In this document: piece by piece, positions 1,825-32,089 of the stretch
Layout of the letters: each line of letters starts with the position of its first letter
How positions within the stretch are numbered: the first letter of the stretch is position 1
DNA from: a virus
Taxonomy: Duplodnaviria > Caudoviricetes
Direction: 5' to 3' (one strand)
Virus record (IMG/VR): IMGVR_UViG_3300044795_000055
Location: 1-43,029 of that record
DNA length: 43,029 nucleotides
Position numbers and translations under genes: made by a program
Notes under the pieces: generated by a model
Databases searched by the model: none
What the model was told of the DNA's origin: nothing
Seen by the model: only the letters and a program-made list of their open reading frames with translations

Positions 1825-3234
1825 ATGAGCCAACCTGCCGAAAAGATGGCTGCACCTAAGCGCAAGGTACGCCGCCTCAAGACCCCGCTGCGCGAGATCA
1901 CCCCAGACCGCGCCGCCAAGGAACCCAGCCTGCGCCCTGGCAAGCTCTGGATCATGCGTTGCGGAAGGCGCGAAGGTCTGGGAGTCCAGATCACCCCGGC
2001 AGGCACCCGGTCGTGGTGCGTAACCTTCACCAATCGAGCCACCGGCAAGCAAGAGCAGCTCGTGATCGGTCGGGTCGGACGCTTGCCCTGGAAGTCCAAG
2101 GCGGGCGATGACAATAGCGTCCTGCGCCAGTGGGAGATCTACGCGGGACAGGCGACTGGCTATGCGCCGAAGTCCATTACTCGCAAGGCCGAAGAACAAC
2201 GCACCGGCAAGCACACGCTGCATCAGGTCAACGAGCAGTACATCAAGCTGATGGCTGACCCGAAGCTCAGCAACAAGCCGCTGGCGCTGGGCAGTCAGAC
2301 CCGCTACCGCAAATGCACCAATCTCCTGGCGTTTGCGTTCAACGCCACAAACCGGGACATCTTCACGATCACCAAGAAGGATGTCCTCGACGGGTTTCCG
2401 TTGCTCTGCCACATCCCCCTCGAGCGTCGCCCAAAAGGCACGCGCATGCGTGGAGGCAAGGCGGCGGCTTACAACGCTATGCGCCACTTCCAGCTGCTCT
2501 GGGAGTTCGCCGCCAAGCAGACCGATGAAGCGCGCCCCCGCTGTCCGTACAGTGTGGTCGACAAGTTGGTCGTGAAACCTGCGCCACGTTCGTTCAAGAT
2601 TTTCGAGCGCTTCATCCCGGTGTTCTGGCACAGCGCAGCGCGGATCCCGCACGACAACGGCATGAAGGCTGCGGGTCCGGTGTGGGCGTTATACCTGCGC
2701 GCGGTGCTGCTGACGGGTTGCCGCCTCACCGAAATGCTTCGGGTCAAGTGGAGCATGATCGACCTCGACGCGCAGACCATCACCTTCCCCGCCCAGGTGC
2801 GAGGTGAGAACGAGGCACACACCAAGAATCGCGCAGAGCATGTCTTCCCCATCGGCAAGTGGCTTGCAGCCGCGCTACGGGCGCACAAGAAGAATCACGA
2901 CCCGGCTTGGAAGGACGATTACGTCTTCACCTACCCGCACGGGTGCCGCTACGCGGGCCTGCGGATGTCTAACACAAAGCGTGTGGTCGCAAAGCACCGC
3001 GCCATGATGGGGAAGGACAACTACTACTTCATCCACAACCTGCGGCACTCGTTCTCGTCGGTCATGGTGAAGCTCGACGTGCCATTCCTCAGCGAGAAGA
3101 AGATGCTGAACCACGTCGTGAAAGACGTGACGGGTACTTATCCATACATCCCGCCTGACACAATCCGCCCGCACACGCAAAGGGTCGAGGATTGGATCTT
3201 GGAGCAGGCTGGAGTCACAAAGGAGGGAAAGTGA
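1825..3234 (+). CDS. int: Tyrosine recombinase / phage integrase with N-terminal arm-binding domain
   Basis: Catalytic set LLTGCR, TKN, HNLRH, LNH, TGTY; N-terminal GLGVQITPAGTRSW arm-binding motif. Confidence 0.92.
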   Translation: MSQPAEKMAAPKRKVRRLKTPLREITPDRAAKEPSLRPGKLWIMRCGRREGLGVQITPAGTRSWCVTFTNRATGKQEQLVIGRVGRLPWKSKAGDDNSVLRQWEIYAGQATGYAPKSITRKAEEQRTGKHTLHQVNEQYIKLMADPKLSNKPLALGSQTRYRKCTNLLAFAFNATNRDIFTITKKDVLDGFPLLCHIPLERRPKGTRMRGGKAAAYNAMRHFQLLWEFAAKQTDEARPRCPYSVVDKLVVKPAPRSFKIFERFIPVFWHSAARIPHDNGMKAAGPVWALYLRAVLLTGCRLTEMLRVKWSMIDLDAQTITFPAQVRGENEAHTKNRAEHVFPIGKWLAAALRAHKKNHDPAWKDDYVFTYPHGCRYAGLRMSNTKRVVAKHRAMMGKDNYYFIHNLRHSFSSVMVKLDVPFLSEKKMLNHVVKDVTGTYPYIPPDTIRPHTQRVEDWILEQAGVTKEGK

Positions 3235-3497
3235 AGGATCGTGACTATGGACCTTGCGCTATCGATGAGTGTGACAACCAACGACGCAAGTTCTCACCCA
3301 TCTGCGCCCAGTGTTCAGCGAACAACCACTATTGGGAGAAAAAGATAGCGAAGTCAGGTGTACAGGTGGTGCGCGAGCGTCAGCACGCTTTGGCGAAGTG
3401 GCAGCACCGGATGATCTACTACTGTAATCAGGAAACCCAACCGAGGAGAATATCTAATGTCGTCAGAATCTTCCCAGCGCGCTCCCAGCAACGGTAA
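3231..3497 (+). CDS. Small Cys-rich (putative Zn-binding) protein
   Basis: GTG start overlaps the int stop, RBS AAGGAGG upstream; CAIDEC...CAQC motif. Confidence 0.6.
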   Translation: MKDRDYGPCAIDECDNQRRKFSPICAQCSANNHYWEKKIAKSGVQVVRERQHALAKWQHRMIYYCNQETQPRRISNVVRIFPARSQQR

Positions 3498-19151: not shown

Positions 19152-19646
19152 TCACCACTTCCGTTTGAGGTCATCAGAGGCTGAAAACTTCGGGTCTCCA
19201 GCCTCCGATTTCCTTCCGGGTGGCCCCTTGGGCGCGCCGGGGCGTGTGCCACCGGATTCCTCTTTTTCGTTGTCCTCCTCGTCCTTGCCGGGACCTGGCT
19301 TTGGCGGCTGACCTGGCGGCTGACCGGGCTGCGGCTTCGGATGCTCGCTGGGATCGGTTTCCTGTCCTCCACCCGGTCCATGCTGCTGTACTGAATAGTT
19401 CATCGTTCCCTCCACAAATCGGACCTTGTTGAGTACCGCAAGCGCTTCCTGATAGGTCACGCGATCTTTCAGGATGCCGAGGCAGGCGAGCGCACGTCGC
19501 TTGTCGTCCTGCTCGAGTCCGAAGATATGCCGCGCAGCTTGCATCGGTATTTCAGTAGGCTTACCCGGCGGGAAAACATAGTTCTGTCCTGCGAACCTCC
19601 CCGCCAGTTGGAAGTCGTTGCGGTTAGTGACCTGCACTTCGTTCAT
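19152..19646 (-). CDS. Capsid-associated protein with low-complexity C-terminus
   Basis: ATGA overlap with the capsid stop; P/G/Q and acidic tail. Confidence 0.6.
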   Translation of the reverse strand: MNEVQVTNRNDFQLAGRFAGQNYVFPPGKPTEIPMQAARHIFGLEQDDKRRALACLGILKDRVTYQEALAVLNKVRFVEGTMNYSVQQHGPGGGQETDPSEHPKPQPGQPPGQPPKPGPGKDEEDNEKEESGGTRPGAPKGPPGRKSEAGDPKFSASDDLKRKW

Positions 19647-20674
19647 AGGCCCGAGACTCCTTGGAACCCGGTGATGCGTGCGCAGGTCTTCGGCTTGGTG
19701 TTCACGATCTGCCAGCAATTCACGACGACGCCCAGGTATCCCAGTTGGAAGTTGGGGATCGTGCTTTCAAAGCCTGAGAAATTAAATGCGGCTTGATCGT
19801 GCCAGTACCCTGACAGGTAGTTGTTGTTGATCATGTAGATCGTGCCAGCGTCGGCTTGCGGCACATAGGGGTCCATGTAGATCGGCATGCCCGCGACGTC
19901 GAGCGCTTTGAATGCGGCGCGTGGCCTATCGCCATCCGAATCAAACGCATTTCCCGGCGTTATGACGTAACTTTCGGCACCGACAAAGTCCTGCGCGAGC
20001 GCTGCCCAGGTGGCTGCGTCAGTCACCCCAAACGAGGCATGCTCTCCACAGAAGTTGGAAAGCCCGACCTGCCACTGCAGTACTAACTTGCGAGTGGGTG
20101 ACACCCCGCCGCCGGGGCGCACATACGACTGCCACCATGTGTTCGCTGTGCGGTCGATGCCTCCATATACTGGACACTCCGTTCCGTCGTCTATGGCGGC
20201 GTCGAGACCTAACGCATGTTGGTTCGCAATGTTGGTGTTCGCGTAAGCGTCGGTCGCCATCAGATGCATCGTTGCGTTGGTCGCATCGTTCATGCGCGCC
20301 TGAATCAACGGAATGACAGCGTGGTCGATCTGCACCAGACCTTCGGTTCCGAGGAACGGGATCGGTGTCAGGACCAGCTGCAGATTGAATTCAGCGTTCT
20401 GCACACCCTGCAGTGAGGGTGGCGGCGCGAAGCTGCCGTCGTATCCCGCAGCGGATGCCACGACCATCGGGCTACCCTGCACCGGCACCGTGATGGAACT
20501 AACACCACCACCCGCCGACTGGGCGTTAGCGATGAGCGAAGCCATCAGGGGACTTGCATTATAGATCTGAATTATTAGCTGTGGGATAAACGCCCGGCGC
20601 GTAATACTTGCGAGTTCGTTGAACTGCGGAGCTTGCGCGGGTAGTTGGGGAAGCAGACCACCGGGGACTGGCAT
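19643..20674 (-). CDS. Major capsid protein (HK97 fold)
   Basis: 343 aa; IYNASPLM, GLDAAIDDG, YGGIDR..NTWW, GMPIYMDPYVP..GTIYMINN motifs; strong RBS GGAGGT; follows scaffold. Confidence 0.85.
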   Translation of the reverse strand: MPVPGGLLPQLPAQAPQFNELASITRRAFIPQLIIQIYNASPLMASLIANAQSAGGGVSSITVPVQGSPMVVASAAGYDGSFAPPPSLQGVQNAEFNLQLVLTPIPFLGTEGLVQIDHAVIPLIQARMNDATNATMHLMATDAYANTNIANQHALGLDAAIDDGTECPVYGGIDRTANTWWQSYVRPGGGVSPTRKLVLQWQVGLSNFCGEHASFGVTDAATWAALAQDFVGAESYVITPGNAFDSDGDRPRAAFKALDVAGMPIYMDPYVPQADAGTIYMINNNYLSGYWHDQAAFNFSGFESTIPNFQLGYLGVVVNCWQIVNTKPKTCARITGFQGVSGL

Positions 20675-20688
20675 AACCTAACCTCCAC

Positions 20689-21219
20689 TTACCTGCCGCG
20701 CGCCCGCCGCAGCATGTCAGCGATACCTTGATTGGCGATTTCGAGACCCTTGCGACGGTTCTCGCTGGCAGAATGTTTGCGCCAGTCGTACTCACCGTCC
20801 TGAGTAGCATTCAACGGCAGGCCCGCGAACGGAGCTGCGCCAGGGACTGCGGTCTCGCGTTGCAACCCGGCGATTCTCAGTGCCGTGTCGAAGGAACACT
20901 TCTCATCGATCACGATCTTTTCGATCTCTTCGGGATCGAAGCCCGCGTCGCGAGAGCGCTGCGCCTCTTCAGCGCGCCGCCGCCGCAGATGTTCATCGCG
21001 ACGGTGTTCCTCCTGTTTCGCTTCCCATTCCTCGCGCTTCTTCGCCTCTGCCTCGATCTTGTCCTGCAGATCGATCTCAGGGAGATGCAGGGTCTTATCG
21101 ACCTTGCGCGCTAAGCGCTTCGCGGCCTCGACAATTTCGGGATCTTTCGCCTCGAGTACCATCTCGCCATAGCGCAGATGTTTGAGCTGCAGAGGCGTGA
21201 GGTCTTCGATACCCGCCAT
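20689..21219 (-). CDS. Scaffolding protein (putative)
   Basis: Charged coiled-coil protein immediately upstream of the capsid gene. Confidence 0.65.
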   Translation of the reverse strand: MAGIEDLTPLQLKHLRYGEMVLEAKDPEIVEAAKRLARKVDKTLHLPEIDLQDKIEAEAKKREEWEAKQEEHRRDEHLRRRRAEEAQRSRDAGFDPEEIEKIVIDEKCSFDTALRIAGLQRETAVPGAAPFAGLPLNATQDGEYDWRKHSASENRRKGLEIANQGIADMLRRARGR

Positions 21220-21359
21220 TACTTTCTCCTGCCGCGACTAGTAGTTCCGTGCGGCGCGCGACCGACGTTGCGGCGCGGCTGACGTGGACTGATCGGACTG
21301 GTGGCGCGCGCCCCCCAGTTCCTGCCGAAACCACCGGCACCCGTTGTTCCTCGTGGCAT
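21219..21359 (-). CDS. 46-aa basic Arg/Gly-rich peptide (not in ORF track)
   Basis: RBS GAGGAG; MPRGTTGAGGFGRNWGARATSPISPRQPRRNVGRAPHGTTSRGRRK; TAATG coupling to scaffold. Confidence 0.7.
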   Translation of the reverse strand: MPRGTTGAGGFGRNWGARATSPISPRQPRRNVGRAPHGTTSRGRRK

Positions 21360-21361
21360 GG

Positions 21362-21490
21362 CTATCTCCTCGTGGTGCGTCGCGTCGATCTCGCCGCAGC
21401 CTGACGCAGCGGCGCGCGCGTAGTTGGAATCGCCATCTGGCGACCCGTCCGCATCCAGCTCTCCGGTATCACCCGCCGACCGTTGCTCAC
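21362..21490 (-). CDS. 42-aa basic peptide (not in ORF track)
   Basis: GTGA overlap with upstream stop; MSNGRRVIPESWMRTGRQMAIPTTRAPLRQAAARSTRRTTRR; stop lies 2 nt before the next ATG. Confidence 0.5.
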   Translation of the reverse strand: MSNGRRVIPESWMRTGRQMAIPTTRAPLRQAAARSTRRTTRR

Positions 21491-21675
21491 ACCGTGTCCC
21501 CCGGTTTGGTCAGCCGCTTGTCGTTCTTGCTGAAGCCTTTCCTGGCGGATGAGAACCCGCCCATCTCCAAGTAGCGGGGCGGATTGCGATTACGCCCATG
21601 CTCCTTGGCGTTGGATGTTGGATCACGCAGGGATCCGGCATTCGGACCTAAGAACTTACGACCACCTTGAGCCAT
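21487..21675 (-). CDS. 62-aa basic head-module protein
   Basis: RBS AAGGAG; MAQGGRKFLGP...NPPRY...GGFS. Confidence 0.7.
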   Translation of the reverse strand: MAQGGRKFLGPNAGSLRDPTSNAKEHGRNRNPPRYLEMGGFSSARKGFSKNDKRLTKPGDTV

Positions 21676-21685
21676 GACTAACTCC

Positions 21686-22159
21686 TTACATCGGTTGTGG
21701 GCCACCCGGCGGACCACCTGGCGGCAAGCCACCGGGCGCTCCCCCTGGCGGCGGACCTCCGCCACCACCACCGGCAGCGGGCGACTGATCCATGAGTGCG
21801 GACTTGAGTTCTGCCGCCATTGGCTTTTGCGCCAGTTCTTCGGTAGGTCCGAATTCTTTGGCGAGCGCAGAGAGCGCTTTCAGGACAGCTCGCCCGCGCG
21901 TTGTGTGCGAGCGAAAGATCGACACCGCATCTTCTAGGGTACGGATGGCAACTTGGACTTTGCTGTCAGCGGCGGCTTCATCGCCACGCGCGGCCTGTGG
22001 TGCCATGGCTGGCGCGCCGCCAGGAGTTGGCGGACCACCCGCTCCCATCGGAGGAGGTGGCGGCGGCATACCGGGAGGCGCACCGGGGGGCGCTCCGCCA
22101 GGTGGCGGCGCTCCGGGGGGACCACCGGGAGGTGGAAGTTGATCAGCGGGGGTAGACAT
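21686..22159 (-). CDS. Pro/Gly-rich head-module protein with a central helical core
   Basis: PPGG repeats flanking KVQVAIRTLEDAV...VLKALSALAKEFG. Confidence 0.7.
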   Translation of the reverse strand: MSTPADQLPPPGGPPGAPPPGGAPPGAPPGMPPPPPPMGAGGPPTPGGAPAMAPQAARGDEAAADSKVQVAIRTLEDAVSIFRSHTTRGRAVLKALSALAKEFGPTEELAQKPMAAELKSALMDQSPAAGGGGGGPPPGGAPGGLPPGGPPGGPQPM

Positions 22160-22167
22160 CCCCGGCT

Positions 22168-22266
22168 GGCAGTGCGCGCAGAGATTGCGCGCGCCTGCAG
22201 CGGGCTGTCAAGAACGACGGGAAACCCAGTGCCCCGTCGACACCGGGTTTCCTTGCACTGCCGTTC
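22168..22266 (-). promoter_or_regulatory. Structured intergenic RNA element (long hairpin, alternative pairings) with TTGACA box
   Basis: GGAAACCC/GGGTTTCC stem (22220-22252), outer 7-bp stem, competing GGCAGTGC/GCACTGCC pairing, TTGACA at 22211-22206. Confidence 0.5.
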
Positions 22267-22269
22267 CTT

Positions 22270-22332
22270 CTACCTGCGGCGACGACGTCCGCGACGCAAA
22301 CGTCGCAGCCGTCTTCGGCGTCGTCTTGCCAT
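22270..22332 (-). CDS. Protamine-like peptide B, 20 aa, 75% Arg (not in ORF track)
   Basis: RBS AGGAGG then ATG; MARRRRRRLRRLRRGRRRRR; mixed Arg codons. Confidence 0.78.
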   Translation of the reverse strand: MARRRRRRLRRLRRGRRRRR

Positions 22333-22423
22333 GGCGGGATCCTCCTGTAGGCACCGGGTCGGTATGTGCTACGACCCAGGTTCAGCGAGTACCCCAGCGC
22401 GCTGGCGCGACTCTACAACCGCA

Positions 22424-22507
22424 TCAACGTCCGCGTCTACGCCTGCGATTCCTGATAGCCCGACGAGTCATTCGCAAACGACGACCCCGACGACGACGAC
22501 GTGGCAT
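22424..22507 (-). CDS. Protamine-like peptide A, 27 aa, 63% Arg (not in ORF track)
   Basis: RBS AGGAGGT right after the portal stop; MPRRRRRGRRLRMTRRAIRNRRRRRGR. Confidence 0.78.
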   Translation of the reverse strand: MPRRRRRGRRLRMTRRAIRNRRRRRGR

Positions 22508-22522
22508 GACACACCTCCTGCT

Positions 22523-24319
22523 CTATGTACCTTCTGTTTGCTCCCCGGCACCATTACTCGAGCGCTTACCCTTCGTGCGCCCGCGAATTCCAGCCATTTC
22601 CGCTTTCTTCAGTTCAAATTCCTGTTGCTCTTTATGAGCTGCCGCCTCGCTGGGTTCGATGACGCTCTCCAGCTCGTGGATGAGCAACTGCCGCTCAGGC
22701 ACCGGCAGCATCTCCAGCAACGTCCTGCGCGTGATTGCTTTCGCTTTGAATAGCTGGAAGGCGAGAGCGGTGGTGTCGTCCGCGAAAATTGGACTGTTGC
22801 TGTGTGCTGTCACCTTGACCAAAAAGTCCTTCGTAAACTGGTGCAGCAGGAAGGGTTCGGTCTGTGGCTTGCCGGGGTCGACCGGAGCTTCCAAAAGCGT
22901 CGGGTCGTACTTCATCGCCACCCGCAGATAAGTTGTAGCCAAAGCCTCTAGACTGTCCTCGATGACTAGGGCACGCTTGCGAGCGCGTGATGATCCGAGC
23001 TTGGCGAGGTCCATGACGTGCCCCCCGGCACGGACGCCGGTGGGGTTCTTGCCCTGTGTGATGGGCGGCAGGCCCGACATCGTTTCAAACATCTCATCGA
23101 TCTTGTTCAGCCGTTCGTAGAGATCGGACGAGATCTCGATCTTGATGCGCTCAGCTTTTGGTCCGCCCGCTCCGGTGCCGGCGGGGTCTGGTTGGTTCAA
23201 GAACCCGCCGGGGGTGTCCAAGACGTACTGGAGTTCCGCGAGGTCACCAGGGAATCCGCTCGACGTCGAAGGCGGATGCGCCTGGAGATCCTGCAAGTGT
23301 TCGATCTGCGCCAGCACCCGGTTGCGATAGGACTGCAGCGGTTGTAGCCGCTCGACCTCACTCATGCCCCAGAAGTACCCCGGATCCGGGTTTGGGCAGA
23401 TCTGAACGAAGGGACACTCCTGTGGAATCCACCCGGTCTCCGACAGCGGACGGTCGAAGATGGGCACATCGGGGTCAGCGAGCGTGACCAATCGATAGTC
23501 GCGCAGCTCATCGTCGTAGACGTACAGCTCGCACATCTCGATGAGTTCCTCGCGCACCCGTGGCACATACTGCATCGAGACCGCAGACAGCCAATCCACC
23601 TGGGCAGCTCCGGTGCCGTGACCTGAGATGGTCCCGAGCGGGGCTTGGCTCGCCATAATGATGCGGTCGACGCCTGCCTCTTGGGTTTCCACCAGGCCGG
23701 AAGCTTGTTTGGGCAGGTCCTTCAGGATGGACTCGAGGCGCGGCAAGCCATCGAAGTTGTTGCGAAACTCCCCTTCGGTCATCTTGTACCAATGGCAGAA
23801 CGCTTCCTGGCGATTCAGCATCGCGACATCCTCGCGCAGCACCCCGAAGTTGTGCGGGTAGACGAGACCTGGATAGTGCTGATCACCTCGCCACATGGGC
23901 TTGATGAACATGCTGTCGTAGACGAGAGCGAGCAGCAGTCCGTTGCTGAAGATCAGATCGGTGTCCGACTGGTGCCAGACGTCGTTGATGTACTCGTTGA
24001 TCTTCGGCACCCAGGACATGTAGGGCTTCGGCACCCCAGCTCCCACCTGGCACGAGAAGCGCGTGGTCTCCTGGGCGTAGAGAAAGCTCGTGAGCTGATC
24101 GAGGTGAGGCCAGATGCGATTCGCTGGGGGTGGACCCATGTTCAAATCGACATTCATGTTCTCTGGCGAACCGTCTGTTCCGTAAAGCCAGTAGAAGCGC
24201 CGCGCGGTGTATTGATTGCGCCGCTCGCTGCGCGACACTCGGCAACGGTCGACCAGCTCCCTGAAGAAGTCGAAGCGCTTGAACTTGTCGCGCTTTTTGG
24301 TGCCTTCGGGGATCTTCAT
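22523..24319 (-). CDS. Portal protein
   Basis: 598 aa; NRIWPHLDQLTSFL, YFWGMSEVERL..LQ, MSGLPPITQG motifs typical of podovirus portals; between TerL and scaffold. Confidence 0.85.
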   Translation of the reverse strand: MKIPEGTKKRDKFKRFDFFRELVDRCRVSRSERRNQYTARRFYWLYGTDGSPENMNVDLNMGPPPANRIWPHLDQLTSFLYAQETTRFSCQVGAGVPKPYMSWVPKINEYINDVWHQSDTDLIFSNGLLLALVYDSMFIKPMWRGDQHYPGLVYPHNFGVLREDVAMLNRQEAFCHWYKMTEGEFRNNFDGLPRLESILKDLPKQASGLVETQEAGVDRIIMASQAPLGTISGHGTGAAQVDWLSAVSMQYVPRVREELIEMCELYVYDDELRDYRLVTLADPDVPIFDRPLSETGWIPQECPFVQICPNPDPGYFWGMSEVERLQPLQSYRNRVLAQIEHLQDLQAHPPSTSSGFPGDLAELQYVLDTPGGFLNQPDPAGTGAGGPKAERIKIEISSDLYERLNKIDEMFETMSGLPPITQGKNPTGVRAGGHVMDLAKLGSSRARKRALVIEDSLEALATTYLRVAMKYDPTLLEAPVDPGKPQTEPFLLHQFTKDFLVKVTAHSNSPIFADDTTALAFQLFKAKAITRRTLLEMLPVPERQLLIHELESVIEPSEAAAHKEQQEFELKKAEMAGIRGRTKGKRSSNGAGEQTEGT

Positions 24320-25201: not shown

Positions 25202-25444
25202 CTACCCCTTCGGGCGGCGTCGACTCAAGGCAATTGCCACAAGCCCGGTCGCCAGTAGTACTAAAGTCGGGGGTTCCGGCACGCTGTGAGTGTCATCGCA
25301 ATCGTGATCACCATCGGGGGCTAAGCAGGCGCAGTTGTCGCAGTCGGCAGGATCCATCTCGTGCCGCTGCGGGAACTTGTCGTGCTTGATGAACACATCA
25401 TTCGGTCCCTGCTGCAAAAGCGCAGCTGCCACTAATTCGATCAT
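25202..25444 (-). CDS. PEP-CTERM sorting-domain mini-protein
   Basis: C-terminal VPEPPTLVLLATGLVAIALSRRR: PEP motif, transmembrane helix, Arg cluster; TAATG-coupled to TerL. Confidence 0.8.
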   Translation of the reverse strand: MIELVAAALLQQGPNDVFIKHDKFPQRHEMDPADCDNCACLAPDGDHDCDDTHSVPEPPTLVLLATGLVAIALSRRRPKG

Positions 25445-27294
25445 TAGCGCCTCCTCGTGAGCATTCTAATCGGCGGCACTGTCGGCCTGGGCACCAACCC
25501 CAATAACTGCTTCTGCCGCTCCGCAAGCTGCTGATAGAACGACGCCACCCGTGGCGCACCCATCTTCTGCTCAGCGGCATAGTTCACGTTTCCCGCCGCT
25601 AGACGGGCGCGCAACTTCTCGTGCCACATGTAGACCGCAAGCGCTGCGGCAATGACCCGGTCGTCTTTGTGACGCGCGCTGCCACCTGGCGCGCAGCCAG
25701 GTTCCTGGGTGATCCACCGCATCTCATCGAGCAGAGGCTTGCTGTGGCACACCGCAAAGCCGCGCCGGAAGTAGCCCTTGAAGAGATCCATGTACCTGTT
25801 TTTTTCTTTCAGCGTGCTTTGCGTTCCTCGAGCGATGGGATTGCGGTTGAGCGAGTCGAATCTCGTGTAGAGAAACTCGGTCATGCCACCCAGGAAGTTG
25901 TTCATCATCTGGCGCGTCTTGGTGTCCCCGATGTAGCGACCGCGACGCAAGTTGTCGACTTCAGCCAGGACTGCCGCGCCGGGACCTGTGATCTCAAGGT
26001 TCCAGGCGCATGGCGCGTACATCGCGCACAGATACACGATCACCCAGGCGAAAGCGTAGGGTTCGTAATCCGCTACCCGGAACTCAGCCACTTGCTCGAT
26101 ACGGTCGAACCAGCAACGCCAGACGCTCACGCAAAAGGCATCAGCCCAGTCGCTCGACCCATAGGCAGGGTCCGCTCCCAGCACATAGCGCCCGTTCTCG
26201 ATTGGCGAAGCGAACACACCCAGGTTGGCTATCCGGGGCGGCACTTCCGAGATGCGAGTGTGGGATAACTCCTCGCCCAGCTCTATCCGCATCGGCGTCG
26301 GTTGGTCCTCGCGGGTCACCCGTCGCATGTTGATCGTGAGATCTTTGGATGCGAAGTACTGACTGCCCGTGGTCACAAAGGCTTGCTCTGCTATCCACGG
26401 CATTTCTTGTTTCGCCATGTCAGGATCCGCGACTTTTTCTTCCGAATACCACCTGTACCAGGCAACTTGTTCCGGTGAGATCTCCTTCGTTCCCCACACA
26501 AACTCCATCACATCACCGTGGAGCGCCGCGACTTCACGCGCGAGCTCGCGCTCTTCACCAGTCATGTGTCCCTGCGTGCCCCAGTACACCTTGAACATGT
26601 TGGAATCGCGCGAGACCCGGTACATCTCGTGCGCCCACCACGACACAAAGATAGCGCGCTGCGTGATTGCTTTGTCCGCGATGCGCCACTGCTCCTCGAA
26701 ACCGTTAAATCCGTTGGCAGTCGACTCCCACAGAAACAATCTCACCGGGTTGATCTCAGCGAGCGAATTCTTCAGCGACTGGAAACTGCCTTGGTCCGCC
26801 CAGTAGGCGACCTCCGTGCCGTGACAGAAAGCATTGCCCTTGGCGCGGCCAAGCTTCACCGACTGTCCCATGCGCGTGCCAGCGATCTGATACTGCAGCC
26901 GCGACATCTTGCCGTTCTTGTGGCGGAACACGAACTCCGAGCGGTTGTGCGCGGGAGAGAAAGGCTTATAAGCCTTCGGCAAGTTGTGATAGAACTCGGT
27001 GAGCGTGGTCCTGAAGTTGACGAAGGTCTGCTCGTCCTGGGTGACCAATGTGCCATCCATGCCGCCATGAACGAATAGCCAATATAGATCTAGCGCCAGG
27101 AACACCGTCGACGCGCCGAGCTGTCGACATTTGAGAATCGTAAAGTCGTGGACCTCGTCCTCGAGTCCCTCAGCGATGCACTTGATGATCCAACGCTGCG
27201 GACCATAAGGCCGCGCCAGCCGTATCGACCCCATCTCTTTCGAGTTGATCGTCAGGCGCGAGCAGAACTTCCAGAAGTCCGCAACCGGAAACAT
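25444..27294 (-). CDS. terL: Terminase large subunit
   Basis: Walker A ILKCRQLGAST, HGTEVAYW, ESTANG, nuclease LGADPA and HKDDRVIA motifs. Confidence 0.93.
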   Translation of the reverse strand: MFPVADFWKFCSRLTINSKEMGSIRLARPYGPQRWIIKCIAEGLEDEVHDFTILKCRQLGASTVFLALDLYWLFVHGGMDGTLVTQDEQTFVNFRTTLTEFYHNLPKAYKPFSPAHNRSEFVFRHKNGKMSRLQYQIAGTRMGQSVKLGRAKGNAFCHGTEVAYWADQGSFQSLKNSLAEINPVRLFLWESTANGFNGFEEQWRIADKAITQRAIFVSWWAHEMYRVSRDSNMFKVYWGTQGHMTGEERELAREVAALHGDVMEFVWGTKEISPEQVAWYRWYSEEKVADPDMAKQEMPWIAEQAFVTTGSQYFASKDLTINMRRVTREDQPTPMRIELGEELSHTRISEVPPRIANLGVFASPIENGRYVLGADPAYGSSDWADAFCVSVWRCWFDRIEQVAEFRVADYEPYAFAWVIVYLCAMYAPCAWNLEITGPGAAVLAEVDNLRRGRYIGDTKTRQMMNNFLGGMTEFLYTRFDSLNRNPIARGTQSTLKEKNRYMDLFKGYFRRGFAVCHSKPLLDEMRWITQEPGCAPGGSARHKDDRVIAAALAVYMWHEKLRARLAAGNVNYAAEQKMGAPRVASFYQQLAERQKQLLGLVPRPTVPPIRMLTRRR

Positions 27295-28103
27295 CAAACC
27301 TCGCAGAGACCTTCACATTCGTTGATGAAGTCCATCTGACCGAAGTCCTCTGCAGTGCGGAAGTCCGCCTCGCTCAGCGGCGTGAGCGATCTATGCACAT
27401 AAAGCTTTTCGGTGCTGCCGCGATAGCCATCCCGTATCGCTTCATCCATCCGCACCGCATCGGCAAACGCTTCAGGCTCATTGTCGCGCAAGTCCTTCCA
27501 GGCGCGATCCGAGCGGTACGGACAGTAAGTGCATGCCGACTTCGGCGGCGTCGGCAACCCGTTCTTCTTGAACCACTCGAGGCAGTGCCCGCGCGTGATG
27601 CCACGCTCGACAAGCGGAAAGACGTTGCGCAAATACGGCAAGTGATTCGGCTTCATGCGCAGCGCTTCATCGGCACTGATGCCGAGAATCACTTCCGCGA
27701 GTATCCCTTCCGGCCTGCGACCACGCTTGAGTCCCAGCAGCTCGCGTTGCTTCTTGGCGAGCGGTGCTAACTTGAAATCGTGCGTGCATTGGCGCGGCAG
27801 CATGCCGTGGTCGCGCCCGGTCGTGGTCGTAAAGAATGGTGGTCCGCCGCTCCCCGACTTCGCTTGCGATACCCGCGACATGATGCTCTCGCGCAAGCGC
27901 TCGCCCGAGCGATAGCCCACCACGCAGTGGACCGGGAAGGGCAGCTGTGGAATCAGCGCTTCCAGATGCCGGTAAACCGAGGGTGGCTCAGAACCCGTGT
28001 CCGCGAAGATTGCTGCGTCGATCCCGAGCCAACCCTCACGCGCCTCGCGCAGCGCTATGTATGTCGACTGCACGCCCGCCCCGAGCGATAGGAATCGCTT
28101 CAT
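27294..28103 (-). CDS. PAPS-reductase-like PP-loop protein
   Basis: LSLGAGVQST, AIFADTGSE, RQCT.DFK, GISADE..R, PPKSAC.YCPY, terminal ECEGLC. Confidence 0.8.
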   Translation of the reverse strand: MKRFLSLGAGVQSTYIALREAREGWLGIDAAIFADTGSEPPSVYRHLEALIPQLPFPVHCVVGYRSGERLRESIMSRVSQAKSGSGGPPFFTTTTGRDHGMLPRQCTHDFKLAPLAKKQRELLGLKRGRRPEGILAEVILGISADEALRMKPNHLPYLRNVFPLVERGITRGHCLEWFKKNGLPTPPKSACTYCPYRSDRAWKDLRDNEPEAFADAVRMDEAIRDGYRGSTEKLYVHRSLTPLSEADFRTAEDFGQMDFINECEGLCEV

Positions 28104-28118
28104 GGCTAGTCCTCCGTG

Positions 28119-28349
28119 TCAGCCCGTCCATCGTGGGTAATGCCTCTGCTTGTCAGTCGAGCGTTCCACGATCTGTCCCACCCATGGCATATTCGGTCGC
28201 GGCAGGTAGCGCAGCGCGTAGCTTGGACACTCGTAGCAACCGAGTCCCGCCATGCTCGCCGCTCCGTACCAACGTCGCCGGTTGCACTCATCCTCGTGCG
28301 GACAAAGCGCATCCACCTGGGCGGGATTAATAGTTAGCGACTTGCGCAT
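28119..28349 (-). CDS. Small Cys-containing hypothetical protein
   Basis: Fills the operon gap; CPHEDEC...CYEC. An alternative frame (28106-28312) is possible. Confidence 0.4.
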   Translation of the reverse strand: MRKSLTINPAQVDALCPHEDECNRRRWYGAASMAGLGCYECPSYALRYLPRPNMPWVGQIVERSTDKQRHYPRWTG

Positions 28350-28974
28350 AATCCGGCGGCGCTCCCTGCACACCCAACCACTTCACCCGGTTGCAATCCC
28401 ACCTGTTCGCCGCCGGGTACTTCGCAGGCCCGATGTGCCGCAAGTTGCCGTCGTAAGGCCAGCCTGCCTGACACCCCCGGCACAACCAGGGACATCCCCG
28501 CATCGAACACCCGCCACTGAAGCCCGGTATGCTTCGCTGCGGACAACCCCCGGCGCAGCGCGCTATCTGCGCAAGTCCGAAATCCGGCATCGCGCCACCA
28601 AACATCACCCAGCCGCGCCACGGGTCGGGCATAGGCCAGGGATCAGGCCAGGAGGGCGGTCGTATGTGATCACCACACCACGCCCACGGGTCGCGCGCAC
28701 TCCAGGCACCGACAAACCGTTGCCACTGCCAAGGCCAGCCCCAACCCCACCACGCCTCTTCCGAAGTCACCCACGGGACCGAAGGCATCCAAGTGCCGAC
28801 GCTACTGCCGTGGCGGAACACCCGGATGCCGTGCCGCCGCAGCTCACGCGCCAGTCGGTCGCAACCACCTTCTGTCAGCTGCAAGCACCCGGTCGTGGGA
28901 TCCGACTCGAGCGTCGACTGCATCGCGTTGGTGATCACGCTCCCCATCGTCGTGAACTGCTTGCATGCCATCAT
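28327..28974 (-). CDS. Trp/Pro/Cys-rich hypothetical protein
   Basis: TGATG coupling to upstream gene; AWWGWGWPWQW and several Cys pairs. Confidence 0.55.
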   Translation of the reverse strand: MMACKQFTTMGSVITNAMQSTLESDPTTGCLQLTEGGCDRLARELRRHGIRVFRHGSSVGTWMPSVPWVTSEEAWWGWGWPWQWQRFVGAWSARDPWAWCGDHIRPPSWPDPWPMPDPWRGWVMFGGAMPDFGLAQIARCAGGCPQRSIPGFSGGCSMRGCPWLCRGCQAGWPYDGNLRHIGPAKYPAANRWDCNRVKWLGVQGAPPDYAQVANY

Positions 28975-30533
28975 CAGCGCACCCTCCGCGCACTGATCAC
29001 GCCTTTGCACTCGACACTGCCGGTAAACACTGCCTGCTGCACGCAGTAAATCGTCGCGGATGCCGCCAGATTGAAGCGCACGCGCGGCGTCGTCATTGCC
29101 ACTACGTTGCCACCCTCAACCTGCGAGGCAATCGCTAAATCAGTGTGCGTGCCATCGGTCCCCAGTGCCTGCGAGATGCCACTCGCACCCACGATCATCA
29201 GGTTGAAAGAGGTAGTCGCACTGGGTCGCCATGACCCCGTGCAAAGCACATCCCAGTCGCCCGCTGTCAGCGTCACCGAGGTCGTATTCGTAAATGCCCC
29301 GGAGGTCACTGCTGCCCACGTCGTTTCCTGATGGATGTACTCCCCGACAAACCCCGGTGCCGCATCGTTGTTGGTCGTAGTCCCCGGAATCCAGTAACCC
29401 GTGGCCGCATTCGCTTCCCACTGGATCTGCTTCGGCGGCGTGCCAAGCGCTCCACCACCGTCCGGTTCCAGAATGATCGAGTTACCTGTCGGCCACGAGG
29501 TGAGTCCTACCTGACCACCGGGTTCCGCCCACAGCATGTGATTGTCAGGCGGCGAATACCCAGGCTGCACTACCTGCCACGGTGCCGTGAACGTCGCACC
29601 CGTCGTCGGAATCCCCGAGGAATCCTCGACCTTCTTTACCCACATCACACTGTGCGCTTTCACAATCGTCGCGTTCGCACTTGAGTTCCGCTGCGCCCAC
29701 TGCACGCCTAGTACCCCAGCCCCACTCACCGTCGCAGTCCCTTCCCACACCAGCATGTTGTTGTTCACACCACCGAGCAACGCGAACTGCGCAAACATCC
29801 CAGTGGGCAACTGCGGGGCTTGCGGTCCCGACGCCCAGGTGGCATTCACTTCACCATTCATGTAGCCGTAGTAGAACTCTCCACCTCCCCACACCCACGC
29901 ACCGGGATTGGAAAAGTTCATGCACATCTGATACCCAGGCGTGTCACCCGTGGGACCACTCGGATACGGTCCCACCGCTATGCTCAAGACACACTTGTAG
30001 TAGTAAGTGCCCGCCCCCGGCAGCGTGATCTGCAGATCAGGATCCACAGTCGGCGTCGCATTGCTCGCCCGCGAGGTGTCGACTGTCTTCTCCGCCGTGA
30101 TGACAGCTCCATCAACGGCACCACCACCCCCGCCGCCAGTCGGACTCTGGTTCACCCACTTGCCGAGAGAGGCATTCCACGTCAGCACCTGTCCGTTCTG
30201 CGGATTGGAAACCTGCACATCGGACAACGCTCCGATGGAACCCCCGCCACCGCCACCTCCACCTCCCGGCCAGGGCATCACGCTCCCCGCACCGGGATTG
30301 GAATTCGGCACCGTCACCACCCCTGGCAGCGCCTCTAACCGTTGCGCAAAGCACCGCAAGCAATAGCGATTGCTCCAGCCCCAGCGCGCCGACCACCGAA
30401 ACTGTAACCAGTCGGCATGCATCCCATGAACGCTACAGCTGTACGTCTGAGGCCACGTCTGACAAATGAATGGATCCCCAGTCGGTCCCCACATCCCAGG
30501 CTGCATCACCTCCGGGTCAATCACACTGCTCAC
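28974..30533 (-). CDS. Second fibre-like protein sharing modules with the tail fibre
   Basis: LSDVQVSNPQNGQVLTWN repeat; WPTGNSIILEPDGGGALG shared with 13218-16109; C-terminal GTTTN..A..G.VGE...LTAGDWDV domain. Confidence 0.7.
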   Translation of the reverse strand: MSSVIDPEVMQPGMWGPTGDPFICQTWPQTYSCSVHGMHADWLQFRWSARWGWSNRYCLRCFAQRLEALPGVVTVPNSNPGAGSVMPWPGGGGGGGGGSIGALSDVQVSNPQNGQVLTWNASLGKWVNQSPTGGGGGGAVDGAVITAEKTVDTSRASNATPTVDPDLQITLPGAGTYYYKCVLSIAVGPYPSGPTGDTPGYQMCMNFSNPGAWVWGGGEFYYGYMNGEVNATWASGPQAPQLPTGMFAQFALLGGVNNNMLVWEGTATVSGAGVLGVQWAQRNSSANATIVKAHSVMWVKKVEDSSGIPTTGATFTAPWQVVQPGYSPPDNHMLWAEPGGQVGLTSWPTGNSIILEPDGGGALGTPPKQIQWEANAATGYWIPGTTTNNDAAPGFVGEYIHQETTWAAVTSGAFTNTTSVTLTAGDWDVLCTGSWRPSATTSFNLMIVGASGISQALGTDGTHTDLAIASQVEGGNVVAMTTPRVRFNLAASATIYCVQQAVFTGSVECKGVISARRVR

Positions 30534-30739
30534 GCTTCCTCCTCCTTGTCCTCCTCCTCGTCCTCTTCCTCTTCATCCTCGTCGTCGTCCTCTGTCACCG
30601 CTGCCGCTACCGCCAGCGCCTGCGCCAGCGAATCGATCACCCGGTTCTGCACGTCAATAATCCTCAACAACCCATCAGTCCCCGGATTGCCATCGTCCTC
30701 GTGCCCAAACCCTTTGCTCTTCTTACCCTTGAAAGCCAT
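30530..30739 (-). CDS. Small protein with highly acidic C-terminal tail
   Basis: RBS GGAGAG; 18 of the last 20 residues are D/E. Confidence 0.65.
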   Translation of the reverse strand: MAFKGKKSKGFGHEDDGNPGTDGLLRIIDVQNRVIDSLAQALAVAAAVTEDDDEDEEEEDEEEDKEEEA

Positions 30740-30740
30740 G

Positions 30741-31145
30741 TCACTCTCCCTTTAAATGATCCAGCACCGCAGCCGAATCCCCACTAAACCATCCCCGCGA
30801 GGCCGCACGCCTCATATAAGTGTCCTGCCGCCGCAAACTCCCCTCATCCCCTTGCCCTCGAGTACGCAACGTCGCTGGCGTCGCATACACCACCACTACC
30901 TCCACCTCGTGCCCTCTACGCTGCAACGGTCCCGTCACGTCCTCGACCGAAAACGGTGTCTCACACAGCACCCGCCCGCGACCACTCGTCAGCGTCGCCG
31001 CATCCCCTATGTCCCGCACATACGCCGCGCGACCCTTGGTGCTGTACGCATCGTGCGGCAAATAGTGATAACCCTCCTTCAACCGCTCACACACCCAGCT
31101 CTTGCCTGACCCAGGTACTCCCACCACTACCGTCACCCTGCCCAT
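30741..31145 (-). CDS. P-loop nucleotide-kinase-like protein
   Basis: VVVGVPGSGKS Walker A at the N-terminus; lid-like TLRTR. Confidence 0.72.
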   Translation of the reverse strand: MGRVTVVVGVPGSGKSWVCERLKEGYHYLPHDAYSTKGRAAYVRDIGDAATLTSGRGRVLCETPFSVEDVTGPLQRRGHEVEVVVVYATPATLRTRGQGDEGSLRRQDTYMRRAASRGWFSGDSAAVLDHLKGE

Positions 31146-31146
31146 G

Positions 31147-31398
31147 TCACTTCATCCCCCGCACACGTCCTCCACCCGCCCGAAACATCCCCCGCGCCGC
31201 AGCCTGCAATTGCCCCAACGCCTCCTCCGCACACGCCTGACACCCCTCAATGAAACTGTTCGTAGTCCCATTGCAGCGCGCCGGATCCGTCAGCCCCACA
31301 CGCTCCGCCCAATACCACCCCGCCTCGTGCCCTGAACAATCGTCCGTGCAAGGCTTGCCCAACGCCCGCCACCCCGCCTTGCTCGCTGGCATCGGCAT
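31147..31398 (-). CDS. Small Cys-rich hypothetical protein
   Basis: PCTDDCSGHEAGWYWA...C...SFIEGC motif; TGATG-coupled start. Confidence 0.65.
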   Translation of the reverse strand: MPMPASKAGWRALGKPCTDDCSGHEAGWYWAERVGLTDPARCNGTTNSFIEGCQACAEEALGQLQAAARGMFRAGGGRVRGMK

Positions 31399-31697
31399 CA
31401 CGGCATCCTCTTCACCCAATCCACTGGCTGCGCTCTACCTCTCATCCGTAGGTGAATCCCCAAGTTCTGCCAGCGCTGCGCCGAAGGCGACTCCTCCCAA
31501 ATCGGTATCACCCGCGAAACTGGTGCGACAAAAGAAACAGCAAGACCAACGCCCAAATCACTACCGCTAGCCACAGGATCACCCTCCTCACTGAGCATCC
31601 GCCGCATCAGTGGCGATGCGTTGTATATGTCAATAACCATCTGCGGCACCGCATACCACTCCCTCTCCACCGGATCCCAAACAAACGGATTCCTCAC
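31398..31697 (-). CDS. 99-aa protein containing a capsid-like peptide
   Basis: GTGA and TGATG coupling on either side; VPQMVIDIYNASPLM matches capsid residues 30-44. Confidence 0.65.
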   Translation of the reverse strand: MRNPFVWDPVEREWYAVPQMVIDIYNASPLMRRMLSEEGDPVASGSDLGVGLAVSFVAPVSRVIPIWEESPSAQRWQNLGIHLRMRGRAQPVDWVKRMP

Positions 31698-31927
31698 TGC
31701 GACGCACCCGCTGCGCTCGACGGCTGCGCCGCCCACCCCTGCCGCCGCGCCCAGTCATTCATCGCCGCACACGCCACACCAAACCTCCCCACCGCTTCCC
31801 CCTGCGTCCAACTCTCCCTCAAACACGCCTCCAATAACTGCCGCGCTGTCGCCTTGTCCGACTCACTCAAATGCTCACACCCCACCATCCCCAGGACTAA
31901 CGTCGCGAAGACAACCGTGTACCGCAT
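31694..31927 (-). CDS. Putative lipoprotein
   Basis: RBS GAGGAG; MRYTVVFATLVLGMVG-C signal and lipobox. Confidence 0.6.
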   Translation of the reverse strand: MRYTVVFATLVLGMVGCEHLSESDKATARQLLEACLRESWTQGEAVGRFGVACAAMNDWARRQGWAAQPSSAAGASQ

Positions 31928-32089
31928 GCCAGCTTCTCCTCATGGGCAGGTCTTCGGCGCTCCCGGCCTGCCAGCGGGTGTGGCGAACAGGTCCAAGGCG
32001 CGCCTATGAGGAGCAGGCGACGCCACCCGCCCGCGCCGCGCCAAACCATACCCCTTTGCTAGCCCCCACTCCACCCCTGTGCATAACCT

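Follow-up and report, generated by a model that had tools for sequence, protein, structure and literature searches.

Arginine- and lysine-rich micro-genes downstream of the portal gene are a conserved class in a large group of uncultured podovirus-like phages

The portal-to-capsid region of the window

The window, which is the whole stretch of 43,029 nucleotides analysed here, is the record of a temperate podovirus-like phage that encodes an integrase, a terminase large subunit, a portal and an adaptor that are both SU10-like, and a capsid protein of the HK97 fold. Profile and structure matches place the portal gene between the genes for the terminase large subunit and the HK97-fold capsid protein. 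Behind the portal stop codon, on the minus strand, lie two short ORFs, each led by an AGGAGG Shine-Dalgarno (SD) sequence, as an earlier note on this DNA had described. The arginine counts claimed there were reproduced by the translated ORFs, and the mixed codon usage was likewise found, with all six kinds of arginine codon in each ORF (micro-ORF1: CGT9, CGC2, CGG2, AGG2, CGA1, AGA1; micro-ORF2: CGC4, CGT4, CGA3, AGA2, CGG1, AGG1). The anatomy given in that note holds for the two ORFs, but it overlooked a leader, a 3′ hairpin, a −35-like box, further basic head ORFs and a lineage in which the genes have been relocated. The genes of the region are as follows.

25444–27297, minus strand: terminase large subunit, giving the context of motor-driven packaging (phrog_2, E = 8e-10)
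22523–24319, minus strand: portal protein, 598 aa, SU10-like (phrog_104, E = 6.7e-5; PF23899, SU10_portal, E = 3.9e-4, below cut-off)
22514–22519, minus strand: Shine-Dalgarno sequence AGGAGG of micro-ORF1, read from the sequence
22424–22507, minus strand: micro-ORF1, MPRRRRRGRRLRMTRRAIRNRRRRRGR, 27 aa, 17/27 Arg, net charge +17, start 15 nt past the portal stop
22341–22346, minus strand: Shine-Dalgarno sequence AGGAGG of micro-ORF2, read from the sequence
22270–22332, minus strand: micro-ORF2, MARRRRRRLRRLRRGRRRRR, 20 aa, 15/20 Arg, net charge +15, 190 nt past the portal stop
21686–22159, minus strand: Pro/Gly-rich protein, 157 aa, with counterparts of 130–170 aa across the portal–capsid gene gaps inspected
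21487–21675, minus strand: basic protein, 62 aa, NPPR motif, net charge +8, with counterparts of 60–68 aa across the portal–capsid gene gaps inspected
21362–21490, minus strand: basic ORF, 42 aa, 11 R/K and 1 acidic residue; its GTG start overlaps the preceding stop, and it is a putative gene
21219–21359, minus strand: basic ORF, 46 aa, net charge +11, 11 R/K, AGGAG-led, with a clear homologue in locus L004
20689–21219, minus strand: putative scaffold protein, 176 aa, assigned by position and charged composition, without a family match
19643–20674, minus strand: major capsid protein, HK97 fold, net charge −11 (phrog_9953, E = 7e-24; best Foldseek match 6j3q, E = 3e-11)

The net charge of the capsid protein ranges from −5 to −16 across 116 relatives. 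The Pro/Gly-rich protein, which lies between the micro-ORFs and the scaffold gene and is kept in the relocated lineage too, matched only unnamed Uroviricota clusters in the ESM Atlas; the 62-aa NPPR protein, a candidate capsid-interior protein, gave no family match in family-profile searches or the ESM Atlas. Lower-GC relatives often carry a basic ORF of 51–57 aa directly 3′ of the portal gene, and in the portal–scaffold gaps of three loci (L017, L138, L152) ORFs that look by eye like HNH endonucleases are inserted beside the micro-ORFs.

The portal has 1710 homologues, many with PF23899. No cultured relatives were found: identity of at least 40% in portal and terminase large subunit was reached only by two metagenomic GenBank genomes, and capsid protein matches among cultured phages show only 22–25% identity. 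Elsewhere in the window, an 80-aa ORF in the terminase–portal gap (25202–25444, minus strand) ends in a PEP-CTERM sorting motif (PF07589 and TIGR02595, both above cut-off), which suggests a Gram-negative host with an exosortase and a phage-encoded surface peptide. Immediately upstream of the terminase gene lies a PAPS-reductase-like gene (27294–28103, minus strand; phrog_424, E = 4e-38), and GC skew is strong at 28000–32000 (−0.18 to −0.37, the coding strand being G-rich), with a change of sign near 32 kb.

Over both strands of the window, three SD-led ORFs of 8–40 aa with at least 40% Arg+Lys are present, including the two micro-ORFs. The third (30517–30576, minus strand) was dismissed because it reads the Asp/Glu tract of a 69-aa ORF (30530–30739) in another frame; eight of its nine arginine codons are AGG. 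The summed charge of the window's micro-peptides (+32) is the family maximum, the median being +9. Searches of Pfam, PHROG, NCBIfam and PDB with the window peptides gave no match, with 0 matches for both in the PDB sequence search; the sensitivity of such searches is low for short, biased sequences.

Conservation, composition and coding of the micro-genes

Portal loci were gathered from viral, metagenome and genome collections (184 sequences, 183 with the portal); 144 loci with the portal stop and 700 nt downstream were kept, a duplicate of the window (L003) was excluded, and dereplication at 90% portal identity left 95 loci, the window included. A micro-ORF was counted if it was SD-led, 8–40 aa long, at least 40% Arg+Lys and started no more than 700 nt from the portal stop. 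The scan of related phages' portal–scaffold gaps that the earlier note had proposed returned equivalents in 86 of these 95 loci (76 of 95 at 50% Arg+Lys), with one micro-ORF in 53 loci, two in 32 and three in 1. Against this stand 0/95 for the antisense strand, 1/79 upstream of the portal gene and 0/202 further downstream; dinucleotide shuffles of the post-portal regions were positive in 10/1900 cases at 40% Arg+Lys and in 2/1900 at 50%. Coarser dereplication left 45 of 51 loci positive at 70% portal identity and 14 of 16 at 50%. Most of the loci missed by the main criterion have a basic C-terminus after a longer N-terminal part; with a C-terminal criterion 90/95 loci were positive (controls 0/95 and 0/137), and two loci (L034, L173) held no peptide by any criterion applied.

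The reverse test points to the same place. The DNA pattern of the commonest peptide was found at 120 loci; upstream DNA was too short for a verdict at 43 of them, and of the 77 assessable loci 76 lie no more than 900 nt downstream of this portal family. A generic Met-Ala-Arg6 pattern was discarded: its 15 loci were a mixture in which one group member stood beside basic ORFs like those of microviruses and the N-terminal parts of longer proteins. Seven distant phage records, including SU10, showed no post-portal equivalent. Both metagenomic GenBank genomes of the group contain two micro-ORFs each; these lack annotation, and hypothetical CDSs are annotated over them on the opposite strand. The micro-genes are thus a real, conserved and unannotated class in a large group of uncultured podovirus-like phages. 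As a separate observation, Arg-rich short ORFs or N-termini occur amid other gene content in the viral contigs L199 (~2513–3271), L195 (1681–2523) and L192 (~2476–2523), one near baseplate genes and two without a PHROG match; these are possible independent cases.

The 120 peptides of the family are 9–28 aa long (median 13) and consist of 42% Arg, 21% Lys, 9% Gly and 8% Ala, with ~1% acidic residues; hydrophobic residues have a median of 0 and a mean of 4%, Trp is absent, Ser makes up 3.8% and Cys occurs in 4/120 peptides. The C-terminal residue is R or K in 118/120, and W, F or Y lies within the last four residues in 3. The protamine-like composition claimed in the earlier note describes the window peptides (63–75% Arg) but not the family as a whole, which is better called polycationic. 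Identical peptides are encoded by differing codons across loci, and 78 pairs of sequences, picked at no less than 85% identity and mutually non-independent, differ by 279 synonymous and 60 non-synonymous codon changes. The Arg share of the basic residues rises from 0.52 at GC < 0.5 to 0.78 at GC ≥ 0.58, total R+K being nearly constant; the exchange of Lys for Arg as GC drops, together with the synonymous codon changes, indicates that charge is under selection and not the exact sequence. These data also bear on the idea that the micro-ORFs arose by chance or simply reflect DNA that is GC-rich or repetitive. With its six codons, arginine turns up often in the off-frames of GC-rich DNA, and the ORF at 30517–30576 is an artefact of this sort; the strand, position and shuffle controls, the synonymous variation and the persistence of the micro-ORFs over GC 0.39 to 0.65 all contradict such an origin, leaving it a negligible probability.

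The SD sequence is of the AGGAG/AGGAGG/GGAGG type in 92/120 micro-ORFs, the stop codon is TAA in 89/120 (vs. 23/86 portal genes), and CGT makes up 36% of micro-ORF Arg codons (vs. 18%). Strong SD sequences, TAA stops and CGT enrichment suggest heavy translation. A late gene position and a high positive charge, in a phage whose host is probably Gram-negative, as indicated by the PEP-CTERM gene, would also suit cationic membrane-active peptides that aid lysis or weaken the outer membrane. However, cationic lysis peptides are amphipathic, a character that the micro-peptides lack along with hydrophobic residues, Trp and any signal or membrane segment, and the holin-like hydrophobic ORFs of the window are ~16 kb distant; a membrane-active role is very unlikely.

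Flanking RNA elements and the relocated lineage

The micro-ORFs of the window are flanked by four RNA or promoter-like elements.

22410–22415, minus strand: −10-like hexamer TAGAGT of a putative internal promoter for micro-ORF2; the window is without a good −35 box
22347–22409, minus strand: putative structured leader of micro-ORF2, consisting of a G-run, TGAAC, a stem (22354–22379), TGCC and the SD sequence
22210–22268, minus strand: long terminator-like hairpin, core 22220–22252 (z = −3.22 against dinucleotide shuffles; terminator-like match)
22182–22211, minus strand: putative σ70-type promoter TTGACA-18-CAATCT for the downstream head genes, which failed a consensus scan

The window-type leader order (G-run, GAAC-type linker, stem, GCC, SD) comes with an outer stem of 4–8 bp in 9 of 13 clade loci, and a similar −10-like hexamer lies upstream of the last micro-ORF in 12/13 (vs. 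1/13 within the portal gene); leader motifs and hexamer were both chosen by eye on these same 13 loci. The leader spacer of micro-ORF2 by itself is no more stably folded than its shuffled versions (z = −0.02). We take the order of the leader's elements, judged by eye, to resemble the fluoride riboswitch topology minus the ligand-binding core. Rfam searches of leaders and spacers, including a set of 15 loci, gave 0 matches, and otherwise only sub-threshold chance matches. The pattern used to look for further leaders of the window type was too permissive: a basic micro-ORF came next at 3 of its 120 loci, and all three belonged to contigs already in the data set. A crude, generic σ70 score for promoters upstream of the last micro-ORF was positive in 27/86 loci (vs. 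25/86 and 18/86 in portal controls), and because it barely exceeds these controls, a promoter of their own is only likely for the micro-ORFs, and for part of the clade.

Downstream of the last micro-ORF the picture is more uniform. The hairpin there has a median z of −3.2, and 76% of the 86 loci have a z below −2, as compared with 5% within the portal gene (z scores from mononucleotide shuffles). In 58/86 loci TTGAC[AT] lies within the 150 nt that follow the last peptide (antisense 3/86).

One subgroup, other than that of the window, has a leader that is an H-type pseudoknot. Across 22 sequences, picked by the motif itself, pairing is found in 94.5% of cells; there are 17 double changes, and 0/500 shuffles scored as high. 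Of the six pseudoknot pairs, only one has double changes in this set. Further compensations were seen by eye in L098, L123, L147 and L162. The leader model built from this set (R1), which contains the SD and start columns, has 39 matches in 96 sources and none in the window; all 28 matches with E < 0.01 lie directly 5′ of basic micro-ORFs, and the remaining 11, which are weak, are at other places. The subgroup pseudoknot is an RNA motif without an Rfam match. Two further leader types precede the last micro-ORF in L029, L030, L032, L033, L035, L036 and L040–L064, one a tandem GA internal loop after a clear −35/−10 pair and the other a C-rich hairpin. In L064 a tRNA-Met(CAT) follows right behind the micro-ORF, ~544–620 nt past the portal stop; a tRNA scan of the 95 portal gaps gave 1 match. 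Leader types thus vary among subgroups, and the peptides remain alike.

The ORF1-type peptide is found in L001, L004–L006, L014 and a relocated lineage. Its core pattern occurs in eight contigs, two with the peptide behind the portal gene and six in a distant, long-branched lineage, placed by a quick version of the portal tree. Each of the six encodes a portal of this family, with an SD-led micro-ORF after the portal gene in 0/6, and carries the ORF1-type peptide away from it, mostly within arrays of Arg-rich ORFs; the upstream gene in 5/6 is a homologue of the window's 598-aa putative tail-nozzle gene. In these contigs (L207, L208, L210–L213; G001–G006) several SD-led Arg-rich ORFs of 12–63 aa stand behind the putative tail-nozzle gene, and the arrays are the largest basic micro-gene dose seen. 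The non-Arg residues of the ORF1 type (L, M/Q, T, A, I) stay in register in the two distant lineages, which suggests micro-gene transfer or a type-specific role.

The relocated contigs bear on whether the micro-ORFs act in cis. A short ORF followed by an intrinsic-terminator-like hairpin is the layout of an attenuator, and the micro-ORFs could be leader peptides that govern read-through from portal to head genes by attenuation or translational coupling. Pairing of the coding sequence with the downstream hairpin is, however, no better than in synonymous recodings (median z −0.16, 7% below −2, n = 86), so that an antiterminator within the coding region is not evident; sensing of a single tRNA is impossible with mixed Arg and Lys, a new −35-like box follows the hairpin, and the head genes of the relocated lineage run with a micro-ORF-free gap. 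The relocation with an empty portal gap and the absence of special coding–hairpin pairing argue for a diffusible product, and cis-acting leader peptides are highly improbable.

Structured RNA on the flanks of the ORF, the 28 strong leader matches before basic micro-ORFs and the constant register of the ORF1 type are what would be expected of arginine-rich-motif RNA-binding regulators that recognise the pseudoknot or hairpin next to them and govern late gene expression. The arginine-rich motifs of lambda N, HK022 Nun and retroviral Rev/Tat belong to larger proteins whose targets are sequence-specific. The micro-peptides are like them in their Arg-rich stretch, their length and the RNA hairpins nearby, and the ORF1 type could form a helix, but they stand alone and exchange Arg and Lys. 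T4 gp32, which binds a pseudoknot within the leader of its own mRNA (PMC535899, in the part of the source available), offers a further parallel: here, too, a pseudoknot lies just 5′ of the SD sequence of a gene for a (putative) non-specific nucleic-acid binder; gp32 is nonetheless a folded ssDNA-binding protein and the micro-ORF product a peptide of 10–27 aa, and the pseudoknot is supported in one subgroup, which is not that of the window. Most micro-peptides are moreover 10–15 residues of R, K and G with Arg and Lys freely exchanged and without an effector region; leader types differ by subgroup while the peptides stay alike, copy number goes up to arrays, and there was no PDB match. RNA regulation is therefore unlikely as the main job of these peptides, although a feedback role like that of gp32 may accompany another.

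A putative gene-encoded counter-ion

The reading preferred here, at a probability of roughly 55%, is that the micro-ORFs encode a polycation, made in bulk, that would partly neutralise phage DNA during late packaging and would probably enter the capsid. The ORFs would be translated from a short and abundant late mRNA; the peptide would be a diffusible, sequence-non-specific polycation with DNA as its main target, acting in packaging or in the virion, where some of it would probably stay, and free peptide may feed back on its own structured leader. Support for this reading comes from the conservation of the micro-ORFs, the selection on charge, the signs of high output, the late structural context, the relocation with its hint of action in trans, the acidic capsid protein, the additional basic ORFs in the portal–scaffold gap and the precedent of microvirus J/VP8. 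Full neutralisation of the DNA was computed to take ~5,400 copies, or ~60% of the DNA mass, so that only partial neutralisation is plausible. A more specific version is tentative and somewhat doubtful: a stand-alone, protamine-like peptide from a dedicated mini-transcript, at hundreds to thousands per capsid, might tune pressure and stability, its dose set by copy number and by binding to the leader pseudoknot, and its micro-gene mobile between lineages.

Findings on other motor-packaging phages count against the preferred reading. Motor-packaging phages lie off the line that relates capsid charge to genome charge and have no capsid R-arms, and Mg2+ and polyamines are thought to be used instead, according to the available part of one source (PMC7096446). 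In lambda, spermine leaves DNA spacing unaltered at wild-type density and 30% of the genome length stays unejected, as stated in the excerpt available (PMC3632124); since spermine makes lambda ejection incomplete, a strong condenser could harm delivery. The physical job proposed for the micro-peptides, the screening of DNA charge in a motor-filled capsid, is that of polyamines and Mg2+ in these two partly available sources, but the micro-peptides are gene-encoded, bear +5 to +17 per molecule and come in one to three copies or in arrays (PMC7096446, PMC3632124).

Polycations bind RNA and ribosomes as readily as DNA, which argues against a DNA-specific role. The peptides could be real polycations that are not packaged and act only inside the cell, by compacting the host nucleoid, coating RNA or ribosomes, or organising replicated phage DNA. 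The evidence from charge selection, expression and relocation is equally compatible with such an intracellular role, which is also free of the problems of capsid space and ejection. On sequence alone, the three roles named in the earlier note, on packaged DNA, in shielding it after ejection and on the host nucleoid, are equally compatible with the data. Against an intracellular role, host-takeover genes are usually early, whereas the micro-ORFs keep company with genes for virion structure, also where they have been relocated, and the head module contains other basic ORFs beside them; a purely intracellular role is considered rather unlikely. A sponge for small polyanions such as polyphosphate or signalling nucleotides, for example in counter-defence, could be proposed from the charge alone, but the near-universal presence of the micro-ORFs in the clade differs from the patchy occurrence of counter-defence genes and 10 residues allow no binding pocket, which makes this function as improbable as attenuation.

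Two groups of encoded nucleic-acid-condensing proteins are comparable to the putative counter-ion. Fish protamine, baculovirus P6.9 and adenovirus mu/VII belong to eukaryotic systems under phosphorylation or proteolytic control, and proteins of the protamine/P6.9 type have Ser-rich phosphorylation sites or Cys cross-links. Their likeness to the micro-peptides lies in composition only, namely Arg clusters and a near absence of acidic and hydrophobic residues; unlike protamines, the two window peptides together contain a single Thr and neither Ser nor Cys, most relatives mix Lys and Arg, and homology was not detectable in Pfam, NCBIfam or PDB searches, whose sensitivity is low for short, biased sequences. 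Closer in kind are microvirus J and gokushovirus VP8, Arg/Lys-rich DNA-packaging peptides within the capsid, as described in the part available of one source (PMC11281519). These too are very short phage peptides, separately encoded beside capsid genes, with a proposed DNA-packaging role, but the same partly available source sets them in an ssDNA T=1 capsid with no terminase motor and has them anchored in the capsid by a C-terminal aromatic residue (PMC11281519), whereas the micro-peptides belong to a portal–terminase dsDNA phage of HK97 fold, are shorter (median 13 aa) and end in R or K (118/120). With neither an aromatic anchor at the C-terminus nor an ssDNA setting, the micro-peptides are not members of the J/VP8 family.

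No description of tailed-phage genes for a DNA-neutralising polycation was found in full-text literature, in which subscription papers are sparsely covered. The 2022 catalogue of small phage genes by Fremin and colleagues, or its supplements, may list these ORFs without a function. Annotation misses such micro-genes, as trypsin-based virion proteomics would, and the class may therefore be hidden in other phages. If the preferred reading is true, a widespread group of tailed phages supplies a counter-ion from its own genome, and capsid pressure and ejection would be genetically tunable. The usual view, in the available part of the source, is that Mg2+ and host polyamines rather than encoded basic peptides balance DNA charge in motor-packaging phages (PMC7096446); conservation of an encoded polycation throughout a deep and abundant clade would be an exception to it.
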